Below, one piece after another: positions 21,851-61,080 of a stretch of 64,000 nucleotides of DNA (positions are counted from its first letter, which is position 1; each line of letters starts with the position of its first letter). Source of the stretch: Heterodontus francisci (lineage: Eukaryota); the NCBI RefSeq assembly GCF_036365525.1, contig NC_090421.1, positions 7,823,133-7,887,132 on the forward strand, given 5' to 3'. A program made the position numbers and the translations under genes. The notes under the pieces were generated by a model. It saw only the letters and a program-made list of their open reading frames with translations, did not search any database and was not told where the DNA came from.

Positions 21851-21864
21851 AGAAACAAAAGAAA

Positions 21865-29895: not shown

Positions 29896-31050
29896 AGTTT
29901 CCATGATAAGGGATATTGTGGCTATTAAGGAGCCAATGGGACAGATTCTCATTCCACAATTTCTCATATTCTGATGCTCAAGGTTAACAATATACCTTTC
30001 GGAAGCAGTGCAGTGTTCATTTAAATCTTAGGTGGCGGTTTGTTCTCTGTTTTGAAAACCAGCTAAGGCTTCACAGTGAGACAGTAATTTGTTACGAGGC
30101 AACACCCTGCGTTAACTTGCGGCACCGGTTTATCTTGCTGAGAAAGCTGCAGGATCATGGGTGGAAATACTGCCTTAGTCACGAATGAAATAAAAGATGT
30201 AATCGGGCCAAACTGTGAGAGAATCCATGTTAATGTAAACCATAGATTTACTGTTTGTAAATGGGGCAATGGGGATCACGCAAACAAGTAGCTGAGAATT
30301 GACGAGAGCCATCAAGCAAAAGCTGAAACATAAACCGAGGGGCTGGAACCTGTGTAAAACCCCTGGGGGTGCATGCACCAGAATATTTTTTTCACTATAC
30401 ATTGCATTGAAAATGGAATGGCAAGAATTGTTTTACTGCATTGAAGAAATCGGATCTCAATTGTACTTCCTTGAATGTGAAATTTGAGCTGTTATGTAAT
30501 GTATTTTTGCATTTTTTTAAATGAATAAAGTACACTTTTGGAAAGACAAAGATCAAACGAAGACTGAAACAATTGCCCTCGTTCATTTCCGAGGTAATTT
30601 CGGAAGTAAGGCACAACTCTGAAGAGCTGTAATGATAACCTTGTTAATGAATTACACTGAATCTCATCACATATCCCAAGCACAAAAACAAGTAGGAAGA
30701 ATTTAGAAAGGATGTCCAGCTTTTCGATAGTGAGCCCAACCTCAAGAGCTGGTGATAGGGGTTTTTGAGCAACATCGTTTCACTCCGATTTTTTAATGTG
30801 AGCAAGAAAAATATCACTGCACAGCACAGAAATATTTTTTTTGGAAGGGGAAGAAATCAGTGAGAATAAAGAACTTTGGGATTACATTCTGAAATTATTG
30901 CGCTGAATCACTGAATGGTGACAGAGAAGGAAAGGTCGGGCAATCACTGGCAATGAGATCCACACTTCTCCAACGACAGACTGTTCGAAAAGAAGCCTGG
31001 CGCAGTATTTTCCGAATTAACTCGTTCACTTGAATTCCCGACTGCTGCGG

Positions 31051-31072
31051 GAACATGTTCGAAGACTTGTTT
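31051..31072. promoter_or_regulatory. p53/p63-family response element upstream of gene B copy 1
   Basis: GAACATGTTC-ga-AGACTTGTTT: two perfect RRRCWWGYYY half-sites with a 2-bp spacer, ~360 bp upstream of the ATG. Confidence 0.6.
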
Positions 31073-31347
31073 GAAGACCAAACAAAGTGCTTTTACCCAT
31101 TTGACTGCAGCTCACTATTTTCCGCTAACCCGTGAACACCGGAATGCACACCAGCTGAGATGTCTCGTTGCAGAGTGTTGAAGTAACTGCACACCTTGTC
31201 ACTGCCGCTAAGTCGCACTCAAGGCAAGATGCAGCTGCTGCTGCTCCGCAAAGGGACAGGTTGGAACCCGTGGCAGAGGGCGGCGGCTGGCTCCTCCTCT
31301 CTATTGCTGTTATCTGACACCCTGACCAAGCTTCCATCCACAGAGCC

Positions 31348-31354
31348 CATAAAA
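31348..31354 (+). promoter_or_regulatory. TATA-like box (CATAAAA), copy 1; repeated at 47953-47959 and 61500-61506
   Basis: CATAAAA 75-81 bp upstream of the ATG, in GC-rich context. Confidence 0.55.
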
Positions 31355-31428
31355 GCAGCTGAAGCCGCCCTCAGCTGCACCAGCCGTTCAGTTTCGGACT
31401 CTCCGCTCTCTCAAGCAACGTCAACACG

Positions 31429-31860
31429 ATGTCCAGTCAGCAGGTTCGCTATTCCAGCAGCAGCAGCAGCGGAGGCGGCGGCGGCGGCCGCATGACAATC
31501 AGACAACATTTCGGCGCACCGAGCACCGGCAAAAGCTATGCCATGTCCAGCCGCTTAAGTGGCTTCAGCTCAGGTGGCTTCAGCTCAGGTGGCTTCAGCT
31601 CAAGTGGTGGACTGCAGCGCGCACGAAGTATGATCAGCACTCCACAACTGAGAATGTCAATGTCGACCAAACGAGGCACTTTCCAGAATCGGAGCGGTTT
31701 CAGCTCTGGCTCTTTGTCTCAGGGGCTGTTGCAGGCAACTAGTAATATTGACCTGAACGCCCCTCTCCCCCAAAATGACACCAGCCTGCAAAATGTCCGG
31801 GTGCAGGAGAGCAAACAGATCATGCATCTCAACGACAAGTTTGCCTGTTTCATTGACCAG
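31429..31860 (+). CDS. Gene B copy 1 exon 1
   Basis: ATG...[11 protein letters not shown]|gtaat. Confidence 0.92.
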
Positions 31861-34800
31861 GTAATTTGAACGATTGTCCAGTCGGTCGTCTTTGTAACCC
31901 AGAGTTTTGTGCCTCTGCTCAATCACTTGCTGTCACTCTGCAAATTGCTCTTCTCGCTTTGCAACCGATTGCGTTCAAATGTAACCGTGCATTCATTTTA
32001 CACCGTCAGGTTCGTGCCCTGGAAGAGATCAATAAGAAGCTGGAGATCAAACTGAATCTTCTGAAAGAACAAGGAACTTACAAATCAAACATCGACTCTA
32101 TGTTCCAGACTTACATTGATAACCTCAAAAGGCAACTGGATACTCTTGGGCAGGAGAAGCTGAAGTTCGAGGCTGACCTTGTCCAGATGCAGGGTCTGGT
32201 TGAGGACTTTAAGTGCAAGTAAGTGTGTTGCTGCTGAATTTGCGAGGGCATTTCTTCTGATCCCGTATCGTGTCCCAACTGAACAAAGTCCCAGGTTCAG
32301 ATTAAGATCATTTTGACCAATTGATCAGGACCCGGCAAAATATCACCGGGCGAAATAATCCGTAGGATGGTCATGTGGACAAAAGTGAAATAGCGAAGAT
32401 AAATGGCTGTACTCGTCACCGTGACAGTAGCCTGTGCTGAGTCAGCTGGTCTCTGCTGGGATACAGCTGTGGTGCCACATTTGGCCTCAGTACCTGTGGA
32501 GAAGGAAACATCAACCAGTGCCCCTGTAGGTGTGGCAATTGAGTCTGGGCGGGAGCCCGAGTGTGTGTTCGTGCTTTGTTAAACTGGGGCTTTAGTGTGG
32601 GTGATCCATTCTGTTGAAGCGCTAACAGGACTGATGCTTCTCAGAGCAGAGTGTGAACACTTCGGGGATGGTGTATATCTTGTGGAGGGAAACATATGAA
32701 GGATAGTGCACAATAGAATATAGATAAATAAGGAGTGTGAGGAAAGCGTGGCTTCGCGATGGGAACCTGCATTTACTCAGTGCAAGGGGCTCCGAGCAAT
32801 AAGTTAGGGCTGGGCAACCCAGAATTGCTTCCTTCACCATGGAAACGGACAGAAAGGTTTATTAACAGCAAGAGATTAACAGCAAAATAATCTGTTTCAT
32901 TCCAGATACGAAGATGAAATTAACAAGCGCACAGAAATGGAAAATGAGTTTGTCTTGGTCAAGAAGGTGAGTATAACCATATATTTCTGTCTGCCGGGCC
33001 AGAGCAAGCGGATCTCTTGGCAGAGTTTCTCAAAGCACTTTGTCCCTCTCCTCTTTAGGATGTCGATGACTCCTACATGAGCAAAGTAGAGCTGGAAGCT
33101 AAACTGGAAAGCCTCACCGATGAAATCGAATTCCTCAAGTCAATCTTTGAAGAGGTAAAAATGTGACAGGGTCCACCAGTTGGCCTTCTGCTGTTTAATC
33201 CAATCAAATGTAATCCAATCCAGTTTGAATGCTTCCTATCTCCTTTCAATCTGTTTTTTTTTCTCCCCTTCGCCGTTCTTTAGGAAATCCGTGAGCTGCA
33301 GGCACAGATTCAGAACACATCTGTCTGCGTGCAACTGGAGAGCAGACCCAACCTGAACGTAGATGACCTGATTGCTCAAGCCAGACATCAGTACCAATTA
33401 CTCGCAGACGCCAACCGTGCAGACGCTGAAGCATGGAAACAGACCAAGGTCAGCTCTTTAAGATCCCGATCACCATTTACCACTTGTATTGGTTGGTCTG
33501 TAGCCGACGCTGAAGTGTGAAATCTTTTACTAACCAGTTGCCAATGTTTCATTGCAGATGCAGGAACTGTCCATGTCGTCTGGACAATGCGGTGATGACC
33601 TCCGTGTGGTGAAAAGCCAGATTGTTGAAATGACTAAGTTGATCAGTAGACTGAATGGTGATATCGACGGTCTGAAACAGCGGGTAGGCAAAGAACTGAA
33701 ACCAAACAGGATATTGGGACCACCTGAATTAGTGTTGTCAAGGACCTGTCTTGTCTTTCTGGGTCTCTCTTTCTCATTTCCCTCCCCCATCCAAAATAAT
33801 GGGAAGAACCAGTTGAAGGATCAGCTCAATCTGGCCTATTTCTGCCAGTCTCAGTCTCTCACTGATGATTCCATTTCGATCCTTGTAAGGAAAAGTTTTG
33901 ATATGAATCCATTGCCAGTCAGTCTGCGGTCCACACCACACCTACTCTTTCCCAATTCACTGACATGAGGGAGAGGCTTTCCCCTTTTGAGTGCTCTTCT
34001 GATACACAAAATGTCCAGGAAACTAACCATATTAATATTTGTGCTACTTAGCGTGTCAGACTGGAGGCTGACATCCAAGAAGCTGAGGAACGTGGTGAGC
34101 TCTCCCTCAAAGATGCCAGGATTAGGATTGCAGAACTGGAAGCTGCCATCAACAAAGCAAAAAATGACCTGACCCGCCAAGTCCAAGAATACAATCAGCT
34201 GCTGAATGTCAAGGTGTCTCTTGATCTTGAAATTGCCACCTACATGAAACTACTGGAGGGAGAGGAGGACAGGTAAGATGTGGGACAGTTACAGATTCCA
34301 GACATCACACTGAGCACAGTCCACAGTTTCCTATAGGAGCAGATTACAATCTGTACTTGCAGTTTATTGGTATTGTCATTACCGTAGCTTTGATCTCTGA
34401 TAATGGAATGAAGTGTGGACACTCATGAGTGGCAGGTTACTCTAAATCACTTACTTTGGTTTAAAGGCTGCTTTGTATCTAAGTAGACACAAACATCACA
34501 CTCCCTCCCAGGATGAAGCCCTGCATGGTGATTCACTCTTCCTTTTATAGAGATGGTCCAGGAAAGGTCTCCTGATGACTCACTGGGTGAAGACATTGTG
34601 GAACTGAGCCACATTGACCAGAAGTTCCACCAGGCCAGCAGTTGGGGTGTACAGTTGGGCGGTGTGCCCCAAGCAAGGGAGGGTAAAAGCAACCCAAGAT
34701 CCTGTTCCTGATTGCCGGACAGTGAAGGTGCAGATCTTCCTTCCCCATGGCCAAATAGCCTGCTGGCATTTGCTGTCTGTGCTCACATGTGAAGAATGGG

Positions 34801-37199
34801 CACTTTGGGTGAGGGCCTGGAGGTTGACTGTACCCATGGAACTGCTCCACAGTTGTTGTCAGTGTCCTTGCGACAGGGAGAAAATTGGTAAACTAGAGGT
34901 AAATCTGACTGTGAATGTAATGCAAATACCTGCTGTAATGTGAAGATGTTTCCTTTATCAACAGAATGGCATCTGGGATAAAAACCCTCAACATCCAGCA
35001 AGTACAGAACCAAGGTAAAAGAACTTCTAATTCCTAGTTTGAGATCATAATTCCTGGAGGAAAACCTAGACATCGAAAAGAAAAATGGGAAATTCTGGAA
35101 ATACATCGTAGGTTCATCATCAGCTGAAATGAAAGGAGACAGGTTGTCATTTTAGGTTTCGACCCGAGGTCACTGTGTATGTGTTCTGAAGAAGGGCCTA
35201 CAGTGCTCCTCAAAACTTAAGCTCTCTTTGTTCTGTTTTCAGAGGCTGATGGACCTGCTGTGCATTTCCAGCATTTCAGTTGTCATTTCAGTCAATCATA
35301 ATTGTAAATAATGTCTCTGTGTTTAATAATGAGAGCAATAGTTGTCGAATATAAGGACAAGATGTAATTACTTCTAGTACTGCTGACTACCCAACTTGCC
35401 TTCCTGGCCACCATGCTGGCTGATAAGGTTTAATGATTCCTTCTCCTCTGGCACTGTCCCCCTCCCGTTCAAATCAGCCATCATCACCCTCCACCTCAAA
35501 AAACCCACATTTCATCCTCTGTCCTTGCAAACTGCCGCCCATCTCCAACTTTCCTTTCCTCGTCAAAGTCTTTGAATGTGTTGTTGCCTCCCAAATACGT
35601 GCAACTCCATGCTTGAACCTCTTCAGTCAGGTTTCTGCCCTGGCCACAGCACTGCAGCAGCCCTTATCAAAGTCACAAATGACATCCTACGTAGTAAACT
35701 ATCTCTCCTCATTCTTCACTACCTGTCTGCAACCATAGATATGGCTGACTGCTCCATTGTTCTCCATTGCCCCTTCTGCTTGGTACAGCTGGGTGGGACT
35801 GCCCTTGCCTGATTCCATTGCTGTCTGTCCAGTCATAGCCAGAGAATTTCCTACAATGGCTTCTTTTCCTGCTCCCGCATTGTTAACTCTGGAGTCCCCA
35901 AGGATAGATTCTTACTCCAATCCTATTTCTCATTCACAGGCTGTCTCACGACGATATCATCCAAAAATGTAACATCAGATTCCATATGTATGCTGATGAC
36001 ACCCAGCTGGACCTCATTACCACTTTTGGCCCCTCCACTGCTTCTGCTTTGTCATCCTGCTTGTCCAAAATCCAGTTTTGGATAAGCAGAAATTTCCTCC
36101 AATGCAACATTGGGATGACCAAAGCCATTGTCTTTGGTCTCCATCACAAATGCCATTCACTAACTACCAACTGCACCCCTCCCTGGCCATTGTCTGTGGC
36201 TGAACCTGTTGGCAACCTTGGTATCATATTTGACCCTGAGCTGTGCTTCTGAACCCAAAGCCACTCCATCACCAAGACCACCCACTTCCACCTCCGTAAC
36301 ATCCTCTGTCTCCGCGACTACCTCAGCCCATCGAATGCTGAAAGCCACATTTCATGATTTGTTAGCCCCAGACTCAACTACTCCAATTACTCTTGGCTGG
36401 CCTCCCACCTCCCACCCTCATAAATTTCAGCTCATCCAAAATTCTGTTCCCGTAGCTTAACATACATCAAGTCCTGCTGACCTTTTGTGCTCAATGACCT
36501 ACCTTGGCTCCCAATCTGGCAATGCCTCGAATTGATAATTCTCATCTTTATGTTCACATTCCTCCCTGGCATCGCCCCTCTCTATCTCTGTAACTTCCTC
36601 CAGCTCTACAATCCTCTGTGAGATCTCTGCACTCCTCCATTTCTGTCCTCTTGTGCATCACCGATTTCCATCATCCCACCATTGGCGGCCATGCTTTCAA
36701 CTACCACGTCCGTAAGTTTAGGAATTCCCTCCATAAACCTCTCTGCCTCTCTACCTCCCTGTCTCCTCCTTTAAGACTTCTGTGTTTGAGCAAGCTTTTG
36801 TCCAAATATATTCTTTACGTGGTTGGGTGTCCAATTTTTATTTGATAAAGCTACTGTGAAGCACCTTGGAATGTTTTGTGAAGTTAAAGGTGCTATATAA
36901 ATGCAAATTGTTTCTCTTGTTGTACTATGTTCTTATAATCTAGGTTCCTACAATTAAAAGAGTGTATTTTTTCCCCTTTTACAGCTAATGTTCAGCAGTT
37001 TAGTGGAATGAGTGGGGGTTTGTCTGGATATGTCCAAGGCATGAGCAACAGCAGTGGGTACGGCAACTTGGAAACCTCTGTACTCAGTTCAGGAGGCTCT
37101 GCTTTCAGTGGCGGCATGGGTGGCGGCGGAGGTAGCAGCAAAACTGTGATTGTGAAATCAGTGCAACAAACCAGTGGTGGATATAAAAGTTCATCTTGA
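31429..37199 (+). CDS. Type II keratin gene B copy 1, complete, 524 aa: join(31429..31860,32010..32218,32906..32966,33059..33154,33284..33448,33558..33683,34052..34272,34965..35014,36985..37199)
   Basis: Nine GT-AG exons; internal sizes 209/61/96/165/126/221 are the type II (K8-like) pattern. Ser/Gly head, [23 protein letters not shown] rod, Gly/Ser tail. 1575 nt, open frame. Confidence 0.95.
32010..32218 (+). CDS. Gene B copy 1 exon 2
   Basis: 209 bp, [14 protein letters not shown]...LVEDFKCK. Confidence 0.93.
32906..32966 (+). CDS. Gene B copy 1 exon 3
   Basis: 61 bp, [20 protein letters not shown]. Confidence 0.93.
33059..33154 (+). CDS. Gene B copy 1 exon 4
   Basis: 96 bp, [32 protein letters not shown]. 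Confidence 0.93.
33284..33448 (+). CDS. Gene B copy 1 exon 5
   Basis: 165 bp, [38 protein letters not shown]. Confidence 0.93.
33558..33683 (+). CDS. Gene B copy 1 exon 6
   Basis: 126 bp, [25 protein letters not shown]...LKQR. Confidence 0.92.
34052..34272 (+). CDS. Gene B copy 1 exon 7
   Basis: 221 bp, [16 protein letters not shown]...[18 protein letters not shown]. Confidence 0.93.
34965..35014 (+). CDS. Gene B copy 1 exon 8
   Basis: cag|AATGGCATCT...CAAG|gtaaa, 50 bp, [16 protein letters not shown]. Confidence 0.85.
35430..36920 (+). mobile_element. Decayed L2 LINE in gene B intron 8 (copy at ~52026-53516)
   Basis: [29 protein letters not shown]-like motif, GCTATATAAATGCAAATTGTT tail. 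Confidence 0.8.
36985..37199 (+). CDS. Gene B copy 1 exon 9 (tail, stop)
   Basis: Pyrimidine tract then cag|CTAATG; Gly/Ser tail ...[21 protein letters not shown]. Confidence 0.9.
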
Positions 37200-37605
37200 A
37201 TCAACAAGGAATAAACTAATGCCAGCAGTGTCTCTTACCAGTGCAGTGATGAGCTCATTGTCAGAGGCTGTCTTTCCTATACGTACTATGTTTAGTGCAG
37301 TGGTTAACACGTTTGGATTAACTTCATGTCTGCTATTTAGAACACCTTCATTAACCTGTTTTACTTCACATAGTTAAATGACATGAAATTAACATTGACT
37401 TCTTAACCAGTGCACAGGGGAAATTCAACCTAGTAAAGGCCAATATTTTGGGTTTGTGGGAAAAGCGGTTAAGAAACTCACATTTTATTTGTTGGTCCCT
37501 TTTAAAATGGGAAATAAACCAAAGTTTTCGGTGCTGAACTCTGTTTCAAGATTCTGTATCATTTTGTATTGGGGATTTATCTTCTTTGACATTCCTGTTA
37601 TGGTG

Positions 37606-37611
37606 AATAAA
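37606..37611 (+). terminator. Candidate polyadenylation signal of gene B copy 1 (alternatives at 37210 and 37513)
   Basis: AATAAA hexamers in the 3' region, before repeat-derived sequence begins. Confidence 0.45.
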
Positions 37612-38099
37612 CTTCTGAACTACAAATATGGACTGCTCTTTGCTTAAGCACAATATTAACTTGCTGAAAAGAACAAGTTTCATACACTCTTGTGAAATTT
37701 AACAACTTTGAAATATTTGAACATAAAGTTTGGAGCAATGTTATGAAACATAGAAAGACTACTTTGTGTATTCCATAGCAAAAACACACCAGACTGTCAC
37801 TGAAACCATTCAGTGCACTAATATAGATACAGCAAAGTTTAACAACAATCCAACTCCAACCTTTTTCTCCTCCACAATGATATAACTTCTCCCATCAGTT
37901 GAGAAAACCAGCTTTGGGCACATGATTTTTTTTTAAATCTCCCGATCTGGTCACAACGGAACCTGTGTATCTAAAATGCAGGCCACCTCATTTGTATGCG
38001 ATAGCGAGAGATGCGTTGGGTTAGAACACTTGCCCTCGGGTCTGTGTTCAAATACAGTGCAGTGCGATCGAGGAAAGTATCCCTATCTACTGACTGTAA

Positions 38100-38325
38100 G
38101 TGTTGTACATGAAATGATTTTGTGCAGTTAGTATAGGCCTACAGTACAAAGTGCTGACTAATTTGTAGTAACAAGCACTCAGTAAGCAGCCTCGCTAAGA
38201 CAGGCCACAGGATAGCTCGTGTGGGGAATGGAGAAATATCACACTGATGTAGTAATGCCATAGGGACTGAGGCATATTCTTGGAGCAGAGGAGAGGAGCT
38301 CTACTCTGTATTAAGCCATGCTTCG
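38100..38325 (+). mobile_element. LF-SINE-like remnant (also in the duplicated and inverted copies; related pieces near 26070-26210 and 2840-2915)
   Basis: GCAGCCTCGCTAAGACAGGCCACAGGA...GGGACTGAGGCATATT...GGAGCAGAGGAGAGGAGCTCTACTCTG resembles the LF-SINE 3' half; judged from memory of the consensus. Confidence 0.4.
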
Positions 38326-41300
38326 AAAAGGCAACTGGGCATATTTGATGTCGACTATTCTAAAGAACCTTAGTTACTCAGATAGGTGTAATAAGCCAGG
38401 TCTATTTACATTCGAGCAGTGTAGATACAGAGGAGACCAGGTCGAACTTTATAAAGTAATGTAAGTTGCTGGATAGTGTGTCTGCTGATAGACTATTCCA
38501 GTTTAACAGATTATGGAGTACCAGGGGACATGGGTTTAAACTACACAATAGTAGCAACAGACTGGATGTTGGGCAGCTCTTCTTATCGTCCTCATATTCC
38601 TCTGGAATATGTTGCTGGCTTGTGTGGTGTCCTCTGACTCTGCACACTTCAAGAGGGAGCTGGACCAGTTCTTGACTGGGGCAGAGATTGCATCATCTAG
38701 AAGGTCAGTGGCATCATAGGCAACACTTGGTGCATGTGATCTCCTGGACTGGTTCTGATCACCTGAGCGGGTTGGGGAGGAACTTTCCGGAGCATTTCTT
38801 CCCTTACGGGCCCTGGGGTTTTCTCCCTTACTTTGCCATTTTGCCTCTCCAGGAAATTACATGGCTAAGATTACAAACGAGCAGTTTGCTTGGAATAGGA
38901 ATATTCCTTCTAGGAATTGTCCATGTATAATGTGGCAAAACCATCCCTGAATCCCCCATCATCAACATCCTGGGTGTCACCATTGACCAGAAACTTAGCT
39001 GCATCAGCCACATAAATACTGTGGTTAAAAAAGGTCAGAGGCTGACTATTCTGTGGCAAATGACTCAACACTTTCCACCATCAACAAGGGATGGGTTAGG
39101 AGTCTGATGGAATATTCTCCAATTACTTGGATGAGTGCAGATCCAACAGTACTCAAGATGCTCAATACGATCCAGGACAAAGCAGCCCGCTTGATCAGCA
39201 CCCCATCCACCAACTTAAACATTCACTCCCTCCACCACCGGTGCACAGTGGCAGCAGTTTGTACCATCTACAAGATGCACTGCAGCAACTCACCAAGGCT
39301 CCTTCGACAGCACCTTCCAAACCCGTGACCTCAACCACCTAAAAGGACAAGGGCAGCAGCACCTGTAATCTCCCCTCCAAATCACACACCATACTGACTT
39401 GGAAATATATCGCTGTTCCTTCACTGTGGCTGGATAAAAATCCTGGAACTCCCTCCCTAACAGCATTGTGGGTGTACCTACCCCACATGAACTGCAGCGG
39501 TTCAAGAAGGCAGCTCACCACCACCTTCTCAAGTGCAATTAGGGATGGGCAATAAATGCTGGCATTGCCAGCAAATCCCACACCTCATGAACGAATAAAC
39601 CAAAAAATGGATACTCTTTTCCATTTAAATCCTTTTTTTAAAGAGCTATTTATTCCCCAAATTTAGCAATCTTCCAGTTACCACAGGCTGACAAAAACGC
39701 AGCAGGGATCCTCCTGAGTTTCCACAGTAAACCAGCTGGTGGAGCCCTTGCGACATAGCACTCAGGCAATTTGATTGCTCTGGCAAGTGGAGTCTTTCAA
39801 TCAGCTCCCACACTGTGCTGCTGTCTGCATTCTGTCTACCCCAAAGAGTGCAAAAAACACTTTCATGCTCAAACACTTTGGGCGAGGGAACTCTGCTACA
39901 AACAATAACTTGCATTTATCTCGCGCCTTTAACTAAAACGTCCCCATGAGCTTCACAAGAGGATAGTCAGGTATCATTTGACACTGAGCTATATAAAGAG
40001 ACTTGAGGAGAGGTGAGCAGAAGCTTCGTGAAAGAGAACGCTTTGAAGGAAACATAGAAAATAGGAGCAGGAGTAGGCCATTCGGCCCTTCGGGCCTGCT
40101 CCGCCATTCAAAAAAGATCATGGCTTACCGTCTAATTCAGTACCCTGTTCCCGCTTTCTCCCCATATCCCTTGATCCCTTTGACATTAAGAAATATATCC
40201 ATCTCCTTCTTGAATATATTTAATGACGGCCTCCACTGCCTTCTGCGGTAGAGAATTCCACAGGTTCACCACCCTCCGAGTGAAGACATTTCTCCTCATC
40301 TCGGTTCTAAATGGCATAGCCCACATCCTGAGACTGTGACCCCTGGTTCTGGACTCCCCATCCTCCCTGCATCTCGCCTGTCTAGTCCTGTTCCAATTTT
40401 ATAGGTTTCTATGAGATCCCCTCTCGTTCTTCTAAACTCTAGTGAATATAGCCCAATCTCTCCTCATACATCAACCTAGTAAAGGCCAATATTTTGGGTT
40501 TGTGGGAAAAGCGGTTAAGAAACTCACATTTTATTTGTTGGTCCCTTTTAAAATGGGAAATAAACCAAAGTTTTCGGTGCTGAACTCTGTTTCAAGATTC
40601 TGTATCATTTTGTATTGGGGATTTATCTTCTTTGACATTCCTGTTATGGTGAATAAACTTCTGAACTACAAATATGGACTGCTCTTTGCTTAAGCACAAT
40701 ATTAACTTGCTGAAAAGAACAAGTTTCATACACTCTTGTGAAATTTAACAACTTTGAAATATTTGAACATAAAGTTTGGAGCAATGTTATGAAACATAGA
40801 AAGACTACTTTGTGTATTCCATAGCAAAAACACACCAGACTGTCACTGAAACCATTCAGTGCACTAATATAGATACAGCAAAGTTTAACAACAATCCAAC
40901 TCCAACCTTTTTCTCCTCCACAATGATATAACTTCTCCCATCAGTTGAGAAAACCAGCTTTGGGCACATGATTTTTTTTTAAATCTCCCGATCTGGTCAC
41001 AACGGAACCTGTGTATCTAAAATGCAGGCCACCTCATTTGTATGCGATAGCGAGAGATGCGTTGGGTTAGAACACTTGCCCTCGGGTCTGTGTTCAAATA
41101 CAGTGCAGTGCGATCGAGGAAAGTATCCCTATCTACTGACTGTAAGTGTTGTACATGAAATGATTTTGTGCAGTTAGTATAGGCCTACAGTACAAAGTGC
41201 TGACTAATTTGTAGTAACAAGCACTCAGTAAGCAGCCTCGCTAAGACAGGCCACAGGATAGCTCGTGTGGGGAATGGAGAAATATCACACTGATGTAGTA

Positions 41301-44300
41301 ATGCCATAGGGACTGAGGCATATTCTTGGAGCAGAGGAGAGGAGCTCTACTCTGTATTAAGCCATGCTTCGAAAAGGCAACTGGGCATATTTGATGTCGA
41401 CTATTCTAAAGAACCTTAGTTACTCAGATAGGTGTAATAAGCCAGGTCTATTTACATTCGAGCAGTGTAGATACAGAGGAGACCAGGTCGAACTTTATAA
41501 AGTAATGTAAGTTGCTGGATAGTGTGTCTGCTGATAGACTATTCCAGTTTAACAGATTATGGAGTACCAGGGGACATGGGTTTAAACTACACAATAGTAG
41601 CAACAGACTGGATGTTGGGCAGCTCTTCTTATCGTCCTCATATTCCTCTGGAATATGTTGCTGGCTTGTGTGGTGTCCTCTGACTCTGCACACTTCAAGA
41701 GGGAGCTGGACCAGTTCTTGACTGGGGCAGAGATTGCATCATCTAGAAGGTCAGTGGCATCATAGGCAACACTTGGTGCATGTGATCTCCTGGACTGGTT
41801 CTGATCACCTGAGCGGGTTGGGGAGGAACTTTCCGGAGCATTTCTTCCCTTACGGGCCCTGGGGTTTTCTCCCTTACTTTGCCATTTTGCCTCTCCAGGA
41901 AATTACATGGCTAAGATTACAAACGAGCAGTTTGCTTGGAATAGGAATATTCCTTCTAGGAATTGTCCATGTATAATGTGGCAAAACCATCCCTGAATCC
42001 CCCATCATCAACATCCTGGGTGTCACCATTGACCAGAAACTTAGCTGCATCAGCCACATAAATACTGTGGTTAAAAAAGGTCAGAGGCTGACTATTCTGT
42101 GGCAAATGACTCAACACTTTCCACCATCAACAAGGGATGGGTTAGGAGTCTGATGGAATATTCTCCAATTACTTGGATGAGTGCAGATCCAACAGTACTC
42201 AAGATGCTCAATACGATCCAGGACAAAGCAGCCCGCTTGATCAGCACCCCATCCACCAACTTAAACATTCACTCCCTCCACCACCGGTGCACAGTGGCAG
42301 CAGTTTGTACCATCTACAAGATGCACTGCAGCAACTCACCAAGGCTCCTTCGACAGCACCTTCCAAACCCGTGACCTCAACCACCTAAAAGGACAAGGGC
42401 AGCAGCACCTGTAATCTCCCCTCCAAATCACACACCATACTGACTTGGAAATATATCGCTGTTCCTTCACTGTGGCTGGATAAAAATCCTGGAACTCCCT
42501 CCCTAACAGCATTGTGGGTGTACCTACCCCACATGAACTGCAGCGGTTCAAGAAGGCAGCTCACCACCACCTTCTCAAGTGCAATTAGGGATGGGCAATA
42601 AATGCTGGCATTGCCAGCAAATCCCACACCTCATGAACGAATAAACCAAAAAATGGATACTCTTTTCCATTTAAATCCTTTTTTTAAAGAGCTATTTATT
42701 CCCCAAATTTAGCAATCTTCCAGTTACCACAGGCTGACAAAAACGCAGCAGGGATCCTCCTGAGTTTCCACAGTAAACCAGCTGGTGGAGCCCTTGCGAC
42801 ATAGCACTCAGGCAATTTGATTGCTCTGGCAAGTGGAGTCTTTCAATCAGCTCCCACACTGTGCTGCTGTCTGCATTCTGTCTACCCCAAAGAGTGCAAA
42901 AAACACTTTCATGCTCAAACACTTTGGGCGAGGGAACTCTGCTACAAACAATAACTTGCATTTATCTCGCGCCTTTAACTAAAACGTCCCCATGAGCTTC
43001 ACAAGAGGATAGTCAGGTATCATTTGACACTGAGCTATATAAAGAGACTTGAGGAGAGGTGAGCAGAAGCTTCGTGAAAGAGAACGCTTTGAAGGAAACA
43101 TAGAAAATAGGAGCAGGAGTAGGCCATTCGGCCCTTCGGGCCTGCTCCGCCATTCAAAAAAGATCATGGCTTACCGTCTAATTCAGTACCCTGTTCCCGC
43201 TTTCTCCCCATATCCCTTGATCCCTTTGACATTAAGAAATATATCCATCTCCTTCTTGAATATATTTAATGACGGCCTCCACTGCCTTCTGCGGTAGAGA
43301 ATTCCACAGGTTCACCACCCTCCGAGTGAAGACATTTCTCCTCATCTCGGTTCTAAATGGCATAGCCCACATCCTGAGACTGTGACCCCTGGTTCTGGAC
43401 TCCCCATCCTCCCTGCATCTCGCCTGTCTAGTCCTGTTCCAATTTTATAGGTTTCTATGAGATCCCCTCTCGTTCTTCTAAACTCTAGTGAATATAGCCC
43501 AATCTCTCCTCATACATCAATCCTGCCATTCCAGGAATCAGCCTAGTAAATCTTCTTTGTACTCCCTCCATAGCAAGAACATCCTTCCTCAGATAAGGAG
43601 ACCAAAACTGCACACAATACTCCAGATGTGGTCTCACCAATGCCCTGTATAACTGCAGTAAGACATCCTTGCTCCTGTACTCAAATCTTCTTGCAATGAA
43701 GGCCAATATACCACTCGCCTTCCTAACTGCTTGCTGCACCTGAATGCTTGCTTTCAGCGACTGGTGTACAAGGGCACCCAGGCCTCGTTGCACCTCCCCC
43801 TTTCCCAATCTATCACCATTCAGATAATAATCTGCCTTTCTGTTTTTACAACCAAAATGGATAACCTCACATTTATCCACGTTATACTGCATCTGCAATG
43901 CATTTGCCCACTCAGCCAACTTGTCCAGATCACATTGGAGCCTCTTAGCATCCTGTTCACAGCTCACATTCCACCCCCTCACTCCCTTCCCCCCCCACCA
44001 CCCCAGCTTTGTGTTGTCTGCAAACTTGGAAATGTTACTTTTACTTTTCTCACCCAAGTCATTAATATATATTGTGAATAGCTGGGGCCCAAGCACTGAT
44101 CCCTGCGGTACCCCACTAGTCACTGCCTGCCACCCGGAAAAAGACCTGTTTATTCCTACTCTGTTTCCTGTCCGTCAACCAATTCTCAATCCATGCCAGT
44201 ACATTACCCCCAATCCCATGTGCTTTAATTTTGCACACTAACCCCTTATATGGGACCTATCAAAAGCCTTCTGAAAATCCAAATACACCACATCCACTGG

Positions 44301-45733
44301 TTCTCCCTTATCTATTCTACTAATTTATTTTGTTTCTTTTGGCCTCCTTATCTCGAGAGACAATGGATAAGCGCCTGGAGGTGGTCAGTGATTTGTGAAG
44401 CAGCGCCTGGAGTGGCCATAAAGGCCAATTCTAGAGTGCCAGGCTCTTCCACAGGTGCTGCAGAGAAATTGTTTGCCGGGGCTGTTACACAGTTGGCTCT
44501 CCCCTTGCGCTTTTGTCTTTTTTCCCGCCAACTGCTAAGTCTCTTCGACTCGCCACACTTTAGCCCCGCCTTTATGGCTGCCCACCAGCTCTGGCGAACG
44601 CTGCCAACTGACTCCCACGACTTGTGATCAATGTCACAGGACTTCATGTCGCGTTTGCAGACGTCTTTAAAGCGGAGACATGGACGACCGGTGGGTCTGA
44701 TACCAGTGGCGAGCTCGCTGTACAATGTGTCCTTGGGGATCCTGCCATCTTCCATGCGGCTCACATGGCCAAGCCATCCCAAGCACCGCTGACTCAGTAG
44801 TGTGTATAAGCTGGGGATGTTGGCCGCCTCGAGGACTTCTGTGTTGGAGATACGGTCCTGCCACCTGATTCCATCTTCACTGCCTCCGGAGAATACTTGG
44901 CATCAGGTGAGTTGAACAGGGGTTTTTAGTATTTTAACATTGAGATAGGTGTTCAGGGACCGAGAGCCAATGTGAATCAGTGAGCACAGGGTGAATGAGT
45001 GAATGGAACTTGCTGCGAGTTGGGATCGAGGCAGCAGACTGTTGGATGAGCTCAAGTTTGTGAAGGCTGGAAAGTGGGAGGCCAGTTAGCAGAGAATTCA
45101 AATAGTCAAGAGCGAACAAAAGTATGGCTGATGGTTTCAGCAGCAGCAGCAGCAGCAGTTGTCCAAAGGGCTGAGACGGGTGATAATCCGGAGGCGATGG
45201 AATGGCAAGATCCCAGTGATGAAGTAGCTGCACACTCTTTGCCCTCGCTCACACAGTCTCGCTGTGCTGTTCTGCACTGAATTCTCGAGATGCATTGGGT
45301 TTTAGAGCTGGTCGGGAACAAGTGACATTTCTGCTGGCCCGGGTATGTGAGCTGTAAGCTGCCAAAACAGACAATCCCAGAAACAGCCGACGCAGGGGTG
45401 AGCGAGATTGGAGCTCAGATAATCCCTCCTCCATCAGGATTTAACGCTTTATTTACAACAGGCAGCTACCAACAGCGAATAGGCGACTTCAACATCTGCA
45501 AATTTGTTTAGGCTCAAAGAGCAAGCGAGCCATTCGCAAACTGTGCAGATACATCAATAAAAGTTCATCCAGCCCACTCCCCAAGACACATTTAAAGCCA
45601 CGGAATTGACCCTCAGTAATGGACTATCTGCTGTCTAAAAGCAAAATACTGCGGATGCTGGAAATCTGAAACAAAAACAAGAAATGCTGGAATCACTCAG
45701 CAGGTCTGGCAGCATCTGTGGAAAGAGAAGCAG

Positions 45734-45770
45734 AGTTAACATTTCGGGTCAGTGACCCTTCTTCGGAACT
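45734..45770 (-). ncRNA. Hammerhead motif (unit 1, left arm) with mutated helix III palindrome
   Basis: GAAATGTT instead of GAAACGTT (position 45741). Confidence 0.5.
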
Positions 45771-46123
45771 GACAAATATTAGAAAAGTCACAGATTATAA
45801 ACAAGTGAGGTGGGGGTGGGGCAAGAGATAACAAAGGAGAAGGTGCAGATTGGAACAGGCCACATAGCTGACCAAAAGGTCACGGAGAACAGGCAAACAA
45901 TATGTTAATGGTGTGTTGAAAGACAAAGCATTAGTACAGATTAGGTGTGAATACACTGAATATTGAACAGCAGCAAGTGCAAACCTGAAGAAAAACAACC
46001 TGAAAAAAAGTGGGTAAGCAAACTGAACAAACTAAGATGAAATGAAATAAATGCAAAAAAAGATTGTAAAAAATGTAAAAAGGAAGAAAAAATAACTAAA
46101 AATGAAAGTAAAGTGGGGGGCTG

Positions 46124-46453
46124 TCATGCTCTGAAATTATTGAACTCAATGTTCAGTCCGGCAGGCTGTAGTGTGCCTAATCGGTAGATGAGATGCTGTT
46201 CCTCGAGCTTGCGTTGATGTTCACTGGAACACTGCAGCAATCCCAGGACAGAGATGTGAGCATGAGAGCAGGGGGGAGTGTTGAAATGGCAAGCAACCGG
46301 AAGCTCAGGGTCCTGCTTGCGGACTGAGCGGAGATGTTCCGCAAAGCGGTCACCCAGTCTGCGCTTGGTCTCCCCAATGTAGAGGAGACCACACTGTGAG
46401 CAGCGAATACAGTATACTACATTGAAAGAAGTACAAGTAAATCGCTGCTTCAC
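46124..46453 (-). pseudogene. Penelope GIY-YIG endonuclease domain (fragment of truncated pol)
   Basis: VVY...YIGETKRRLGDRFAEH...HF...EQHLI...GLN motifs; an upstream in-frame TGA interrupts the thumb region. Confidence 0.85.
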
Positions 46454-47533
46454 CTGAAAGGAGTGTTTGGGGCCTGGGATAGTGAGGAGAGAGGAGGTAA
46501 ATGGGCAGGTATTACACCTCCTGCGATTGCAGGGGAAGGTGCCCTGGGATGGGGACGAGGTGGTGGGGGTAATGGAGGAGTGGACCAGGGTGTCGCGGAG
46601 GGAACGATCCCTTCGGAATGCTGACAGGGGAAGGGAGGGGAAGATGCGACTGGTAGTGGCATCACGCTGGAGGTGGCGGAGGATGATCCTTTGGATATGG
46701 AGGCTGGTGGGATGAAAAGTGAGGACAAGGGGAACCCTGTCACGGTTCTGGGAGGGAGAGGAAGGGGTGAGGGTAGAGGTGCGGGGAATGGGTCAGACAC
46801 GGTTGAGGGCCCTGTCAACCACAGTGGGGGGAAATCCTCGGTTGAGGAAAAAGGAGGTCATATCAGAAGCACCGTCATGGAAGGTAGCATCATCAGAGCA
46901 GATGCGTCGGAGACGGTGAAACTGGGAGAATGGAATGGAGTCCTTACAGGAGGTAGGGTGTGAAGAAGTGTAGTCGAGGTAGCTGTGGGAGTCAGTGGGC
47001 TTATAATGGATATTGGTAGACTCTCCCCCCTGCTCTCATGCTCACATCTCTGTCCTGGGATTGCTGCAGTGTTCCAGTGAACATCAACGCAAGCTCGAGG
47101 AACAGCATCTCATCTACCGATTAGGCACATTACAGCCTGCCGGACTGAACATTGAGTTCAATAATTTCAGAGCATGACAGCCCCCCATTTTACTTTCATT
47201 TTTAGTTATTTTTTCTTCCTTTTTTACATTTTTTACAATCTTTTTTTGCATTTATTTCATTTCATCTTAGTTTGTTCAGTTTGCTTACCCACTGTTTTTT
47301 TCAGGTTGTTTTTCTTCAGGTTTGCACTTGCTGCTGTTCAATATTCAGTGTATTCACACCTAATCTGGACTAATGCTTTGTCTTTCAACACACCATTAAC
47401 ATATTGTTTGCCTTTTCTCCGTGACCTTTTGGTCAGCTATGTGGCCTGTTCCAATCTGCACCTTCTCCTTTGTTATCTCTTGCCCAACCCCCACCTCACT
47501 TGTTTATAATCTGTGACTTTTCTAATATTTGTC

Positions 47534-47570
47534 AGTTCCGAAGAAGGGTCACTGACCCGAAACGTTAACT
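47534..47570 (+). ncRNA. Minimal type I hammerhead ribozyme motif in the Penelope arm
   Basis: AGTT-CCGAAGA-A-GGGTC-ACT-GACCC-GAAACGTT-AACT: stem I, CUGANGA-like core (C at U4), stem II, GAAA, ACGU palindrome. Confidence 0.65.
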
Positions 47571-48033
47571 CTGCTTCTCTTTCCACAGATGCTGCCAGAC
47601 CTGCTGAGTGATTCCAGCATTTCTTGTTTTTGTATCTGCTGTCTAATACTGCCAGCTGCTCTCTCCATTTCCATTCATCATGTCCATAGGAGTTGCTCGC
47701 CTATCAAACAGCTCCTTCACAGGGCCCTTTCACGGCCCTTGGAGCCTCCCGGTCCTACACACAACTGATGATCTCGGGGGCTGCTCCCAACAGCCACACC
47801 TTGTCACTGCCGCCAAGTCGCACTCAAGGCAAGATGCAGCTGCTGCTGCTCCGCAAAGGGACAGGTTGTAACCCGTGGCAGAGGGCGGCGGCTGGCTCCT
47901 CCTCTCTATTGCTGTTATCTGACACCCTGACCAAGCTTCCATCCACAGAGCCCATAAAAGCAGCTGAAGCCGCCCTCAGCTGCACCAGCCGTTCAGTTTC
48001 GGACTCTCCGCTCTCTCAAGCAACGTCAACACG

Positions 48034-48456
48034 ATGTCCAGTCAGCAGGTTCGCTATTCCAGCAGCAGCAGCAGCGGAGGCGGCGGCGGCGGCCGCATGA
48101 CAATCAGACAACATTTCGGCGCACCGAGCACCGGCAAAAGCTATGCCATGTCCAGCCGCTTCAGCTCAGGTGGCTTCAGCTCAGGTGGCTTCAGCTCAAG
48201 TGGTGGACTGCAGCGCGCACGAAGTATGATCAGCACTCCACAACTGAGAATGTCAATGTCGACCAAACGAGGCACTTTCCAGAATCGGAGCGGTTTCAGC
48301 TCTGGCTCTTTGTCTCAGGGGCTGTTGCAGGCAACTAGTAATATTGACCTGAACGCCCCTCTCCCCCAAAATGACACCAGCCTGCAAAATGTCCGGGTGC
48401 AGGAGAGCAAACAGATCATGCATCTCAACGACAAGTTTGCCTGTTTCATTGACCAG
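48034..48456 (+). CDS. Gene B copy 2 exon 1
   Basis: 423 bp, in frame. Confidence 0.9.
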
Positions 48457-51400
48457 GTAATTTGAACGATTGTCCAGTCGGTCGTCTTTGTAACCCAGAG
48501 TTTTGTGCCTCTGCTCAATCACTTGCTGTCACTCTGCAAATTGCTCTTCTCGCTTTGCAACCGATTGCGTTCAAATGTAACCGTGCATTCATTTTACACC
48601 GTCAGGTTCGTGCCCTGGAAGAGATCAATAAGAAGCTGGAGATCAAACTGAATCTTCTGAAAGAACAAGGAACTTACAAATCAAACATCGACTCTATGTT
48701 CCAGACTTACATTGATAACCTCAAAAGGCAACTGGATACTCTTGGGCAGGAGAAGCTGAAGTTCGAGGCTGACCTTGTCCAGATGCAGGGTCTGGTTGAG
48801 GACTTTAAGTGCAAGTAAGTGTGTTGCTGCTGAATTTGCGAGGGCATTTCTTCTGATCCCGTATCGTGTCCCAACTGAACAAAGTCCCAGGTTCAGATTA
48901 AGATCATTTTGACCAATTGATCAGGACCCGGCAAAATATCACCGGGCGAAATAATCCGTAGGATGGTCATGTGGACAAAAGTGAAATAGCGAAGATAAAT
49001 GGCTGTACTCGTCACCGTGACAGTAGCCTGTGCTGAGTCAGCTGGTCTCTGCTGGGATACAGCTGTGGTGCCACATTTGGCCTCAGTACCTGTGGAGAAG
49101 GAAACATCAACCAGTGCCCCTGTAGGTGTGGCAATTGAGTCTGGGCGGGAGCCCGAGTGTGTGTTCGTGCTTTGTTAAACTGGGGCTTTAGTGTGGGTGA
49201 TCCATTCTGTTGAAGCGCTAACAGGACTGATGCTTCTCAGAGCAGAGTGTGAACACTTCGGGGATGGTGTATATCTTGTGGAGGGAAACATATGAAGGAT
49301 AGTGCACAATAGAATATAGATAAATAAGGAGTGTGAGGAAAGCGTGGCTTCGCGATGGGAACCTGCATTTACTCAGTGCAAGGGGCTCCGAGCAATAAGT
49401 TAGGGCTGGGCAACCCAGAATTGCTTCCTTCACCATGGAAACGGACAGAAAGGTTTATTAACAGCAAGAGATTAACAGCAAAATAATCTGTTTCATTCCA
49501 GATACGAAGATGAAATTAACAAGCGCACAGAAATGGAAAATGAGTTTGTCTTGGTCAAGAAGGTGAGTATAACCATATATTTCTGTCTGCCGGGCCAGAG
49601 CAAGCGGATCTCTTGGCAGAGTTTCTCAAAGCACTTTGTCCCTCTCCTCTTTAGGATGTCGATGACTCCTACATGAGCAAAGTAGAGCTGGAAGCTAAAC
49701 TGGAAAGCCTCACCGATGAAATCGAATTCCTCAAGTCAATCTTTGAAGAGGTAAAAATGTGACAGGGTCCACCAGTTGGCCTTCTGCTGTTTAATCCAAT
49801 CAAATGTAATCCAATCCAGTTTGAATGCTTCCTATCTCCTTTCAATCTGTTTTTTTTTCTCCCCTTCGCCGTTCTTTAGGAAATCCGTGAGCTGCAGGCA
49901 CAGATTCAGAACACATCTGTCTGCGTGCAACTGGAGAGCAGACCCAACCTGAACGTAGATGACCTGATTGCTCAAGCCAGACATCAGTACCAATTACTCG
50001 CAGACGCCAACCGTGCAGACGCTGAAGCATGGAAACAGACCAAGGTCAGCTCTTTAAGATCCCGATCACCATTTACCACTTGTATTGGTTGGTCTGTAGC
50101 CGACGCTGAAGTGTGAAATCTTTTACTAACCAGTTGCCAATGTTTCATTGCAGATGCAGGAACTGTCCATGTCGTCTGGACAATGCGGTGATGACCTCCG
50201 TGTGGTGAAAAGCCAGATTGTTGAAATGACTAAGTTGATCAGTAGACTGAATGGTGATATCGACGGTCTGAAACAGCGGGTAGGCAAAGAACTGAAACCA
50301 AACAGGATATTGGGACCACCTGAATTAGTGTTGTCAAGGACCTGTCTTGTCTTTCTGGGTCTCTCTTTCTCATTTCCCTCCCCCATCCAAAATAATGGGA
50401 AGAACCAGTTGAAGGATCAGCTCAATCTGGCCTATTTCTGCCAGTCTCAGTCTCTCACTGATGATTCCATTTCGATCCTTGTAAGGAAAAGTTTTGATAT
50501 GAATCCATTGCCAGTCAGTCTGCGGTCCACACCACACCTACTCTTTCCCAATTCACTGACATGAGGGAGAGGCTTTCCCCTTTTGAGTGCTCTTCTGATA
50601 CACAAAATGTCCAGGAAACTAACCATATTAATATTTGTGCTACTTAGCGTGTCAGACTGGAGGCTGACATCCAAGAAGCTGAGGAACGTGGTGAGCTCTC
50701 CCTCAAAGATGCCAGGATTAGGATTGCAGAACTGGAAGCTGCCATCAACAAAGCAAAAAATGACCTGACCCGCCAAGTCCAAGAATACAATCAGCTGCTG
50801 AATGTCAAGGTGTCTCTTGATCTTGAAATTGCCACCTACATGAAACTACTGGAGGGAGAGGAGGACAGGTAAGATGTGGGACAGTTACAGATTCCAGACA
50901 TCACACTGAGCACAGTCCACAGTTTCCTATAGGAGCAGATTACAATCTGTACTTGCAGTTTATTGGTATTGTCATTACCGTAGCTTTGATCTCTGATAAT
51001 GGAATGAAGTGTGGACACTCATGAGTGGCAGGTTACTCTAAATCACTTACTTTGGTTTAAAGGCTGCTTTGTATCTAAGTAGACACAAACATCACACTCC
51101 CTCCCAGGATGAAGCCCTGCATGGTGATTCACTCTTCCTTTTATAGAGATGGTCCAGGAAAGGTCTCCTGATGACTCACTGGGTGAAGACATTGTGGAAC
51201 TGAGCCACATTGACCAGAAGTTCCACCAGGCCAGCAGTTGGGGTGTACAGTTGGGCGGTGTGCCCCAAGCAAGGGAGGGTAAAAGCAACCCAAGATCCTG
51301 TTCCTGATTGCCGGACAGTGAAGGTGCAGATCTTCCTTCCCCATGGCCAAATAGCCTGCTGGCATTTGCTGTCTGTGCTCACATGTGAAGAATGGGCACT

Positions 51401-59280: not shown

Positions 59281-59317
59281 AGTTAACGTTTCGGGTCAGT
59301 GACCCTTCTTCGGAACT
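59281..59317 (-). ncRNA. Minimal hammerhead ribozyme motif (unit 2, left arm)
   Basis: Exact reverse complement of the right-arm motif. Confidence 0.62.
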
Positions 59318-61080
59318 GACAAATATTAGAAAAGTCACAGATTATAAACAAGTGAGGTGGGGGTGGGGCAAGAGATAACAAAGGAGAAGGTGCAGATTGG
59401 ACCAGGCCACATAGCTGACCAAAAGGTCACGGAGAACAGGCAAACAATATGTTAATGGTGTGTTGAAAGACAAAGCATTAGTACAGATTAGGTGTGAATA
59501 CACTGAATATTGAACAGCAGCAAGTGCAAACCTGAAGAAAAACAACCTGAAAAAAAGTGGGTAAGCAAACTGAACAAACTAAGATGAAATGAAATAAATG
59601 CAAAAAAAGATTGTAAAAAATGTAAAAAGGAAGAAAAAATAACTAAAAATGAAAGTAAAGTGGGGGGCTGTCATGCTCTGAAATTATTGAACTCAATGTT
59701 CAGTCCGGCAGGCTGTAGTGTGCCTAATCGGTAGATGAGATGCTGTTCCTCGAGCTTGCGTTGATGTTCACTGGAACACTGCAGCAATCCCAGGACAGAG
59801 ATGTGAGCATGAGAGCAGGGGGGAGTGTTGAAATGGCAAGCAACCGGAAGCTCAGGGTCCTGCTTGCGGACTGAGCGGAGATGTTCCGCAAAGCGGTCAC
59901 CCAGTCTGCGCTTGGTCTCCCCAATGTAGAGGAGACCACACTGTGAGCAGCGAATACAGTATACTACATTGAAAGAAGTACAAGTAAATCGCTGCTTCAC
60001 CTGAAAGGAGTGTTTGGGGCCTGGGATAGTGAGGAGAGAGGAGGTAAATGGGCAGGTATTACACCTCCTGCGATTGCAGGGGAAGGTGCCCTGGGATGGG
60101 GACGAGGTGGTGGGGGTAATGGAGGAGTGGACCAGGGTGTCGCGGAGGGAACGATCCCTTCGGAATGCTGACAGGGGAAGGGAGGGGAAGATGCGACTGG
60201 TAGTGGCATCACGCTGGAGGTGGCGGAGGATGATCCTTTGGATATGGAGGCTGGTGGGATGAAAAGTGAGGACAAGGGGAACCCTGTCACGGTTCTGGGA
60301 GGGAGAGGAAGGGGTGAGGGTAGAGGTGCGGGGAATGGGTCAGACACGGTTGAGGGCCCTGTCAACCACAGTGGGGGGAAATCCTCGGTTGAGGAAAAAG
60401 GAGGTCATATCAGAAGCACCGTCATGGAAGGTAGCATCATCAGAGCAGATGCGTCGGAGACGGTGAAACTGGGAGAATGGAATGGAGTCCTTACAGGAGG
60501 TAGGGTGTGAAGAAGTGTAGTCGAGGTAGCTGTGGGAGTCAGTGGGCTTATAATGGATATTGGTAGACTCTCCCCCCTGCTCTCATGCTCACATCTCTGT
60601 CCTGGGATTGCTGCAGTGTTCCAGTGAACATCAACGCAAGCTCGAGGAACAGCATCTCATCTACCGATTAGGCACATTACAGCCTGCCGGACTGAACATT
60701 GAGTTCAATAATTTCAGAGCATGACAGCCCCCCATTTTACTTTCATTTTTAGTTATTTTTTCTTCCTTTTTTACATTTTTTACAATCTTTTTTTGCATTT
60801 ATTTCATTTCATCTTAGTTTGTTCAGTTTGCTTACCCACTGTTTTTTTCAGGTTGTTTTTCTTCAGGTTTGCACTTGCTGCTGTTCAATATTCAGTGTAT
60901 TCACACCTAATCTGGACTAATGCTTTGTCTTTCAACACACCATTAACATATTGTTTGCCTTTTCTCCGTGACCTTTTGGTCAGCTATGTGGCCTGTTCCA
61001 ATCTGCACCTTCTCCTTTGTTATCTCTTGCCCAACCCCCACCTCACTTGTTTATAATCTGTGACTTTTCTAATATTTGTC

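Follow-up and report, generated by a model that had tools for sequence, protein, structure and literature searches.

Organization of the keratin array

We analysed a 64,000-nucleotide stretch of the Heterodontus francisci genome (NC_090421.1, positions 7,823,133 to 7,887,132; hereafter the window), which lies on G000:C51 and carries part of a tandem array of type II keratin genes. A match search of the genome, together with the assembly, gave the array the structure U-(A-B)x3-A-D with four gene copies, the fourth of which lies outside the window. The original prediction had described three copies and a promoter swap by tandem duplication, in which copy 1 keeps a p53/p63 element and the later copies sit behind a ribozyme-bearing Penelope element. 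The array proved to be real, with a fourth copy that carries a different last exon. A Penelope-driven swap is unlikely to be the story, and the locus is better described as a keratin array of sharks and rays in which exon-bounded concerted evolution has long been at work, with upstream regions and tails of two kinds each.

The region upstream of copy 1, U (30640..31189, + strand), is single-copy, having one genomic match of one, and is also set apart by its contig depth. It is followed by A1 (31190..35988, + strand), the homogenised block found in four copies, which comprises a 239-bp proximal promoter with a GC box at 31278 beside a CATAAAA box at 31348, exons 1-8 and the first part of intron 8. 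Block B1 (35989..47794, + strand; three copies) holds the rest of intron 8, exon 9a, the 3' untranslated region (UTR, with AATAAA at 37606) and the intergenic DNA up to the next A. As predicted, identity between copies begins at 31190, 47795 and 61342, 239 bp 5' of each ATG, and the CATAAAA box is kept in all the window copies (31348, 47953 and 61500). The promoter gave four genomic matches, whereas of the four matches to the spacer that precedes the later copies (S) three were full-length, and exon 9a with its UTR also gave three full matches. The A copies are 99.5-99.8% identical (0.2-0.5% apart), and the B units are about 0.1-0.2% apart.

Copy 1 (U-A-tail a; 31429..37199, + strand) is a gene of nine exons encoding 524 aa (31429-31860, 32010-32218, 32906-32966, 33059-33154, 33284-33448, 33558-33683, 34052-34272, 34965-35014 and 36985-37199). 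All eight introns are GT-AG, the reading frame is open, the length equals that of RefSeq model P0002, and spliced RNA contigs cover several exons. Copy 2 (S-A-tail a; 47795..53795, + strand) starts at ATG 48034 and encodes 521 aa, its exon 1 being 9 bp shorter than that of copy 1. After B2 (52585..61341, + strand), copy 3 (S-A-tail a; 61342..64000, + strand; ATG 61581; 526 aa) continues into L001. Past the window comes copy 4 (S-A-tail b), which encodes 514 aa and has its A block at L002 910-5695 and exon 9b at L002 5929-6125. All four copies can be distinguished by in-frame differences in the length of a 15-bp head repeat (GFSSG) and of a GGC run (31540-31605, 48145-48200 and 61700-61760), exon 1 measuring 432, 423, 438 and 420 bp in copies 1 to 4. 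The four proteins of 524, 521, 526 and 514 aa are listed for Heterodontus francisci as K8-like, and their PF00038 intermediate filament (IF) rod domain, K8-like named matches and nine exons identify the genes as type II keratins.

Copy 4 shares the S-A upstream junction with copies 2 and 3 and differs in its last exon (tail b). Its match to A stops at the equivalent of 35988, in intron 8, after which the sequence (D) is paralogous and takes in the end of the intron, exon 9 and the UTR. Identity between the tail-a and tail-b genes falls in steps, from that of A to 86% in the leftover piece of intron 8, 72% in the 3' UTR and 66% in exon 9, as expected if the tracts differ in age.

An assembly artefact was rejected. 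Block A has a DNA contig depth of about 28 in run X1, possibly the source sample, about four times the depth of U (about 6-7); these depths carry a warning that depth does not equal copy number, and still fit a real array. Together with the copy-specific variants they argue against an assembly error, which the original prediction had allowed for at the 47794/47795 junction; the X1 rows listed cover parts of the array other than the S-A junction. The comparison of sequencing runs covered four of the 23 listed, and contig depths were not used for ranking genes.

Several further repeats were seen in and around these blocks. Unit 1 alone contains a tandem duplication of 3,046 bp (37425..43520, + strand; 37425-40474 and 40471-43520) that is 100% identical and repeats the poly(A) signal region; it either arose very recently or reflects a misassembly. 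A 4.3-kb piece of B lies inverted upstream of copy 1 (21161-25477 on the - strand against 40758-45027, 98%) and was found only at the array locus, with B the donor, because the copy ends inside an old repeat that B holds whole. At 35140-35290 and 35380-36910, intron 8 contains an older relic resembling a Penelope long terminal repeat (pLTR), recognized by eye, and a high-copy repeat insertion that is also present in organism B; the end of the copy-4 tract falls inside this insertion. At L029 3315-3556 (G000:C47) there is a 5'-truncated copy of the tail-a 3' UTR, 90% identical, with a short A run about 15 nt past AATAAA, which looks like a retrocopy marking a poly(A) site near 37625.

Concerted evolution across cartilaginous fishes

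We compared proteins from 18 cartilaginous fishes, reached by homologue search and cluster lists; these are protein records, and gene order outside H. francisci is deduced from them. Both tail types occur in 14 of the 18 species, and in all 14 the head and rod of the a and b proteins are 99.0-100% identical, the identity stopping 13-20 residues past the exon-8 motif, that is, at about the end of exon 8. Between species, the protein encoded by exons 1-8 averages 61% identity (range 51-95%, 11 species). Paralogues within a species are therefore closer than orthologues between species, which is the signature of concerted evolution. Accordingly, a tree of exons 1-8 groups by species, the b label needing 13 changes for 13 rows. 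The tree of tails groups largely by type and needs three changes, and none of 500 shuffles gave as few. On means, b tails scored higher against the b tails of other species than a tails in 11 of 11 species. In the 13 elasmobranchs where both tails occur, the b tail is always represented by a single distinct sequence and the a tail by at least one. By these unconverted parts the paralogues predate the species split, with the chimaera doubtful and neither tail type monophyletic.

The 5' border of the block also appears in a relative. In run X7, from organism B, whose introns are about 97% identical, the alignment of contig 15 starts precisely at 31190, and the contig has 431 other letters in front of that point; the A copies here are only 0.2-0.5% apart. 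Position 31190 is most likely the old edge of the homogenised tract; the break in this RNA contig falls at the same base.

We therefore consider it probable, with good confidence, that the locus reflects long-running concerted evolution of a two-gene keratin array, expanded by unequal crossover inside A. Two type II keratin genes, U-A-tail a and S-A-tail b, would have lain in tandem at the ancestral locus. As they recombined, by gene conversion and by unequal crossover, the stretch from about -239 to intron 8 would have been overwritten time and again, leaving head and rod common within each species. The upstream regions and the last exons, lying outside the tract, would have remained of two kinds each. 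Under this model 31190 would be the left edge of the tract and S the old intergenic DNA before the b gene. Unequal crossover inside A would add A-B units, and with each unit a hybrid gene of the form S-A-tail a. Tail b, lying past the last A, cannot be multiplied in this way, and the outcome would be more than one a gene alongside a single b gene. The counts of four for A and three for B are likewise what is expected from crossover between two pre-existing A blocks.

Some observations weigh against this account. Neither tail type is monophyletic, and the b tails fall on one side in 0% of bootstrap trees, the alignment being short and of low complexity. The chimaera's two tails are nearer to each other (score 105) than to shark b tails (at most 41), and this pair may be independent. 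Mustelus has two a sequences and no b, three species have a single full sequence each, and the evidence from other species consists of protein records rather than genomic DNA. The 431 leading letters of X7 contig 15 may be S or other DNA. With the Penelope element removed, U and S showed no significant similarity at any of three scales (113 of 300 shuffles were as good), so that sequence does not mark S as a paralogous promoter. Finally, the copy-4 junction at 35988 is non-homologous, lying mid-repeat with short microhomology, and a deletion would also fit.

The last two points would suit another history, in which a recent tandem duplication with a new junction put the Penelope element and spacer before copies 2-4, removing the p63 site, and the last copy was later joined by a deletion to the end of a nearby keratin gene; the small divergence of the B units also agrees with it. 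That history needs two events and, in addition, a fusion of this kind in each of 13 further species, always at this exon border, and the break at 31190, common to species about 3% diverged, is older than the amplification. We consider it improbable. Recent duplication as the cause of the swap, and copy 1 as the only keeper of the ancestral state, both parts of the original prediction, are not supported in view of the counts of A and B blocks, the a/b pair across sharks and rays and the relative's break at 31190.

It is less probable still that the a and b proteins elsewhere are alternative splice products of two last exons, or annotation or assembly artefacts, with separate genes only in this genome. 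Protein records alone from the other species leave room for such a reading. Nevertheless, the genes are separate in DNA here, where DNA contig depth fits a multi-copy A, and the other species' proteins have separate accessions, none of which is named an isoform, with several a records per species differing in head or rod.

Concerted evolution thus remains the preferred explanation. A degenerate exon-1 pattern had two matches in metagenome contigs, neither of them a keratin gene, and no shark DNA was found there; a protein search with the tail alone returned nothing beyond the cluster itself. In the open literature we found no account of concerted evolution of this array, subscription journals being mostly outside that search.

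The spacer and the Penelope-like insertion

Copies 2 and 3 lie, as predicted, behind a spacer and the + strand arm of a Penelope element. Upstream of both there is a 148-bp spacer, a 14-bp target-site duplication and an arm ending 402 bp before the ATG (about 150 bp and 400 bp in the prediction). The spacer is proximal S (47647..47794, + strand) and occurs only before copies 2, 3 and 4. The insertion (45625..47646) is 5'-truncated and flanked by the target-site duplication at 45625-45638 and 47633-47646. Its main body (45639..47019, - strand, antisense to the keratin gene) comprises the end of an open reading frame (ORF), a pLTR and a tail; the 222-aa open frame at 46124-46792 has a C-terminus that, from its translation, we take to be of endonuclease type. 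An inverted 3' fragment (47020..47632, + strand) repeats the last ~50 codons and the pLTR, 98.2% identical to the other arm, an arrangement described as typical of Penelope-like elements (PMC8557442, available text). The pLTR, inverted truncated arm, tail, dispersed family and target-site duplication identify the insertion as Penelope-like.

The family is young, the best 40 of 2405 candidates being 97-100% identical, and the identical insertion is present in all three B units (arms 59215-59828 and 60567-61183 in B2). The insertion accordingly predates the latest amplification, and it appears to be later than the a/b arrangement. An old repeat runs unbroken across 45027, through B and into S, and 36 of 40 among the matches listed are dispersed copies spanning 45027. 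These observations indicate that the insertion is young, that the intergenic DNA around it is old and that its amplification was passive. The element would have entered this DNA 402 bp upstream of the downstream gene and then been carried along as B multiplied.

A minimal hammerhead-type motif is present in both arms (47534..47570, + strand; second copy 45734-45770, - strand), recognized by comparison with the motifs in PMC4209133 as far as its text was available. It comprises helix I AGUU/AACU, core CCGAAGA, an extra A, a 5-bp helix II, GAAA and CGUU. In the + arm the core boxes, the extra base before helix II, G10.1-C11.1, the palindromic 15.2-16.2 and helix I are all present, with C in place of U at core position 4, as in all 10 of the motif copies found. 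An Rfam scan of 44500-48100 gave no hammerhead and one chance snoRNA match, and folding of the motif gave no stability signal (z 0.06).

Two small features lie near the S-A junction. The S side (47760-47795) ends AACAG|C, a possible weak splice acceptor that is missing from U. At 47834 (31229 in copy 1) there is also an ATG, out of frame with the keratin, whose reading frame extends across the start of the keratin.

Transcription of the copies

Run X5, which we guess to be RNA from the sample of X1, contains a main spliced contig whose exon 1 shows 12 gap letters without any substitution. This is the copy-4 pattern, because exon 1 is 420 bp in copy 4 and 432 bp in copy 1, with an unassembled allele as an alternative; exon 9a is also covered in this run. 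Run X13, from another relative (organism C), has exon 8 spliced to both tails; for tail b, the 30 letters displayed after exon 8 all agree with exon 9b. The S/b-class genes are therefore transcribed without a nearby p53/p63-type site and are not silent as a class, contrary to the suggestion that the extra copies could be silent. The RNA data treat copies 1, 2 and 3 together. RNA cover of U was near zero in X5, X7 and X13, which we do not take as a sign that copy 1 is silent. Probably all copies use the shared proximal promoter.

It had also been suggested that the extra copies could be influenced by the Penelope element. Its + arm might act as an upstream promoter, or its ribozyme might cut read-through RNA, and so alter expression of copies 2-4. 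The + arm lies in the keratin sense, and the Drosophila Penelope pLTR holds a start site and an internal promoter, according to the available part of PMC8557442. Weak hints come from the X5 contig, which starts 20 bp before the TATA-like box, and from an X7 contig that crosses the junction. Minimal hammerheads in vitro, however, did not cleave as monomers and did so little as dimers (PMC4209133, available text), and same-strand copies here lie 13.5 kb apart. The invariant C at core position 4 also counts against a ribozyme, and RNA starting in S would carry the out-of-frame ATG at 47834, which may interfere with the overlapping keratin start. We regard such control as scarcely likely, and found no evidence tying the element to regulation.

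A p53/p63-type site upstream of copy 1

The unique DNA of U contains a p53/p63-type site, GAACATGTTC-GA-AGACTTGTTT, with two perfect RRRCWWGYYY half-sites and a 2-bp spacer (31051..31072). It lies 378 bp before the ATG of copy 1 and 118 bp outside the homogenised block. With spacers of 0-13 it is the sole perfect two-half-site match in the window, and copy 1 alone has one, as predicted; no such match was found in 200 kb of flanking loci. At spacer 2 a chance match arose in 1 of 100 shuffles of the window. With spacers of 0-13 chance matches arose in 59 of 20,000 trials when the 1 kb preceding the ATG was shuffled, and in 25 of 300 when 1-47794 was. The site is thus rarer than chance for a promoter but not for the whole region. 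Near-identical keratins do have one or the other of two distinct regions before them. The site, which may be functional, could contribute to the control of copy 1 or of the entire array.

Other upstream words proved less distinctive. The TEAD-type GGAATG (31141) and the AP-1-like TGAATCA (30904) noted in the original prediction are present, although neither stands out from chance (of 3000 shuffles, 1192 were as good for the first and 777 for the second), and we dismissed both. TGAATCA differs from the AP-1 consensus TGA[CG]TCA, which has no match in 30600-31428. A degenerate site at -358 in S, which aligned with the -378 site, was scored equally by 138 of 500 shuffles and was not counted.

In an extension that is compatible with concerted evolution, the site would be functional and specific to copy 1, the U-type and S-type genes would be expressed in different cell layers or tissues, and selection would for that reason hold the border at -239. 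The perfect site in unique DNA, its rarity in promoter shuffles and the presence of a deposited epidermal keratin in the family favour this possibility. Several points speak against it. The motif was chosen after the fact, no contig from a relative reached 31051-31072, and a site 16-44 kb away could serve all copies too. The site has a 2-bp spacer, and thus departs from the spacer-free form of the response element that dominates chromatin immunoprecipitation (ChIP) data; in the available text of PMC7735755, spacer sites and lone half-sites together make up about 1-5% of p53 peaks and are termed p53-only rather than p63. We therefore entertain the extension only tentatively.

A broader version is similarly tentative, and we lean against it. 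Since the shark-ray ancestor, the gene may have been modular, with a homogenised core of proximal promoter, head and rod between two fixed borders and, beyond these, upstream regions and tails of two kinds each. Recombination would deal out U-a, S-a and S-b combinations and thereby fix how many genes carry tail a, with tail b remaining single. Selection would hold the 5' border just short of the p63 element, giving the classes different expression. If true, such a gene would mimic alternative promoters and alternative last exons, encoded by gene conversion.

Keratin class and neighbouring genes

In a tree of 25 rows, the 12 chondrichthyan rows form their own branch (91/90), and K75 and K1b fall with tetrapod K8. 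The array genes did not group with tetrapod epidermal type II keratins, as K5 orthologues would, in this tree without mammalian K5. Nor are they arranged as canonical K8, head-to-head with K18, since it is the upstream neighbour and not the array that faces a K18-like gene. Tail b outscored tail a against six of seven bony-vertebrate tails. By sequence, the array gene appears to belong to a cartilaginous-fish K8-like group and is not evidently K5, which leaves the link to K5 in the original prediction as an analogy. A catshark member of the family has been deposited as "epidermal keratin type II", and an epidermal role for the array is plausible.

The K18-like gene (L014 5715-8025, - strand) stands head-to-head with a K8-like gene that runs from L014 8396 to about 9360 of the window (+ strand). 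The gap of 370 bp between them contains a spacer-free p53/p63-like site with two mismatches. A direct repeat of 171 bp, 99.4% identical (9483-9653 and 11957-12127), lies 3' of exon 7 of this K8-like gene. A further divergent type II keratin gene faces the array (L006 9864 to L005 8024, - strand). According to the available text of 10.1101/2025.02.26.637739, krt8-like genes lie on the X chromosome in 13 elasmobranchs, and the array on G000:C51 may likewise be X-linked.

Comparison with known systems

The Penelope insertion resembles Penelope-like elements with minimal hammerheads, as described in the available parts of PMC4209133 and PMC8557442, in its 5' truncation, inverted arm, tail at one end and motif in the pLTR. 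It differs in that the core is CCGAAGA throughout the family, nothing else being unusual. The neighbourhood resembles keratin cluster 2, krt18/krt8, of an earlier survey (10.1101/2020.05.06.063123), in which a type I gene stands head-to-head with a K8-like gene and several type II genes follow. That survey includes one chondrichthyan, its available text has no mention of "gene conversion" or "concerted", and its methods kept one of any sequences more than 99% alike.

Concerted evolution accounts for the resemblance of shark "K8-like" genes to recent species-specific duplicates and is a caution against dating such genes by rod identity. Because head and rod are held constant, the array is also a natural test of keratin tail function.

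K5 is a p63-controlled basal keratin. The array gene is like K5 in being type II, with a Gly/Ser-rich head, a likely epidermal place and a p63-like site upstream, and unlike it in grouping only with chondrichthyan genes and in the spacer within its site. The array offers a natural test of whether epidermal keratins were already under p63 control in cartilaginous fishes.

In the red/green opsin and gamma-globin arrays, upstream control lies beside the first gene, and conversion, hybrid genes and changes of copy number by unequal crossover all occur. Those are younger pairs, whereas the shark pattern spans sharks and rays and its distal gene appears well transcribed. Of the patterns described so far, the closest is that of the mammalian KRTAP1 array (10.1101/282418, available text), in which tandem skin-protein genes undergo concerted evolution in a sharply bounded tract with normal divergence outside it. 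In KRTAP1 the coding region is homogenised from start to stop. In contrast, the shark tract takes in the proximal promoter, introns and exons 1-8 and omits the last coding exon, and copy number changes. With the shark-ray split at 265-349 million years (quoted in 10.1101/2025.02.26.637739), an exon-bounded conversion tract maintained since then would represent unusually old concerted evolution in a protein-coding array.

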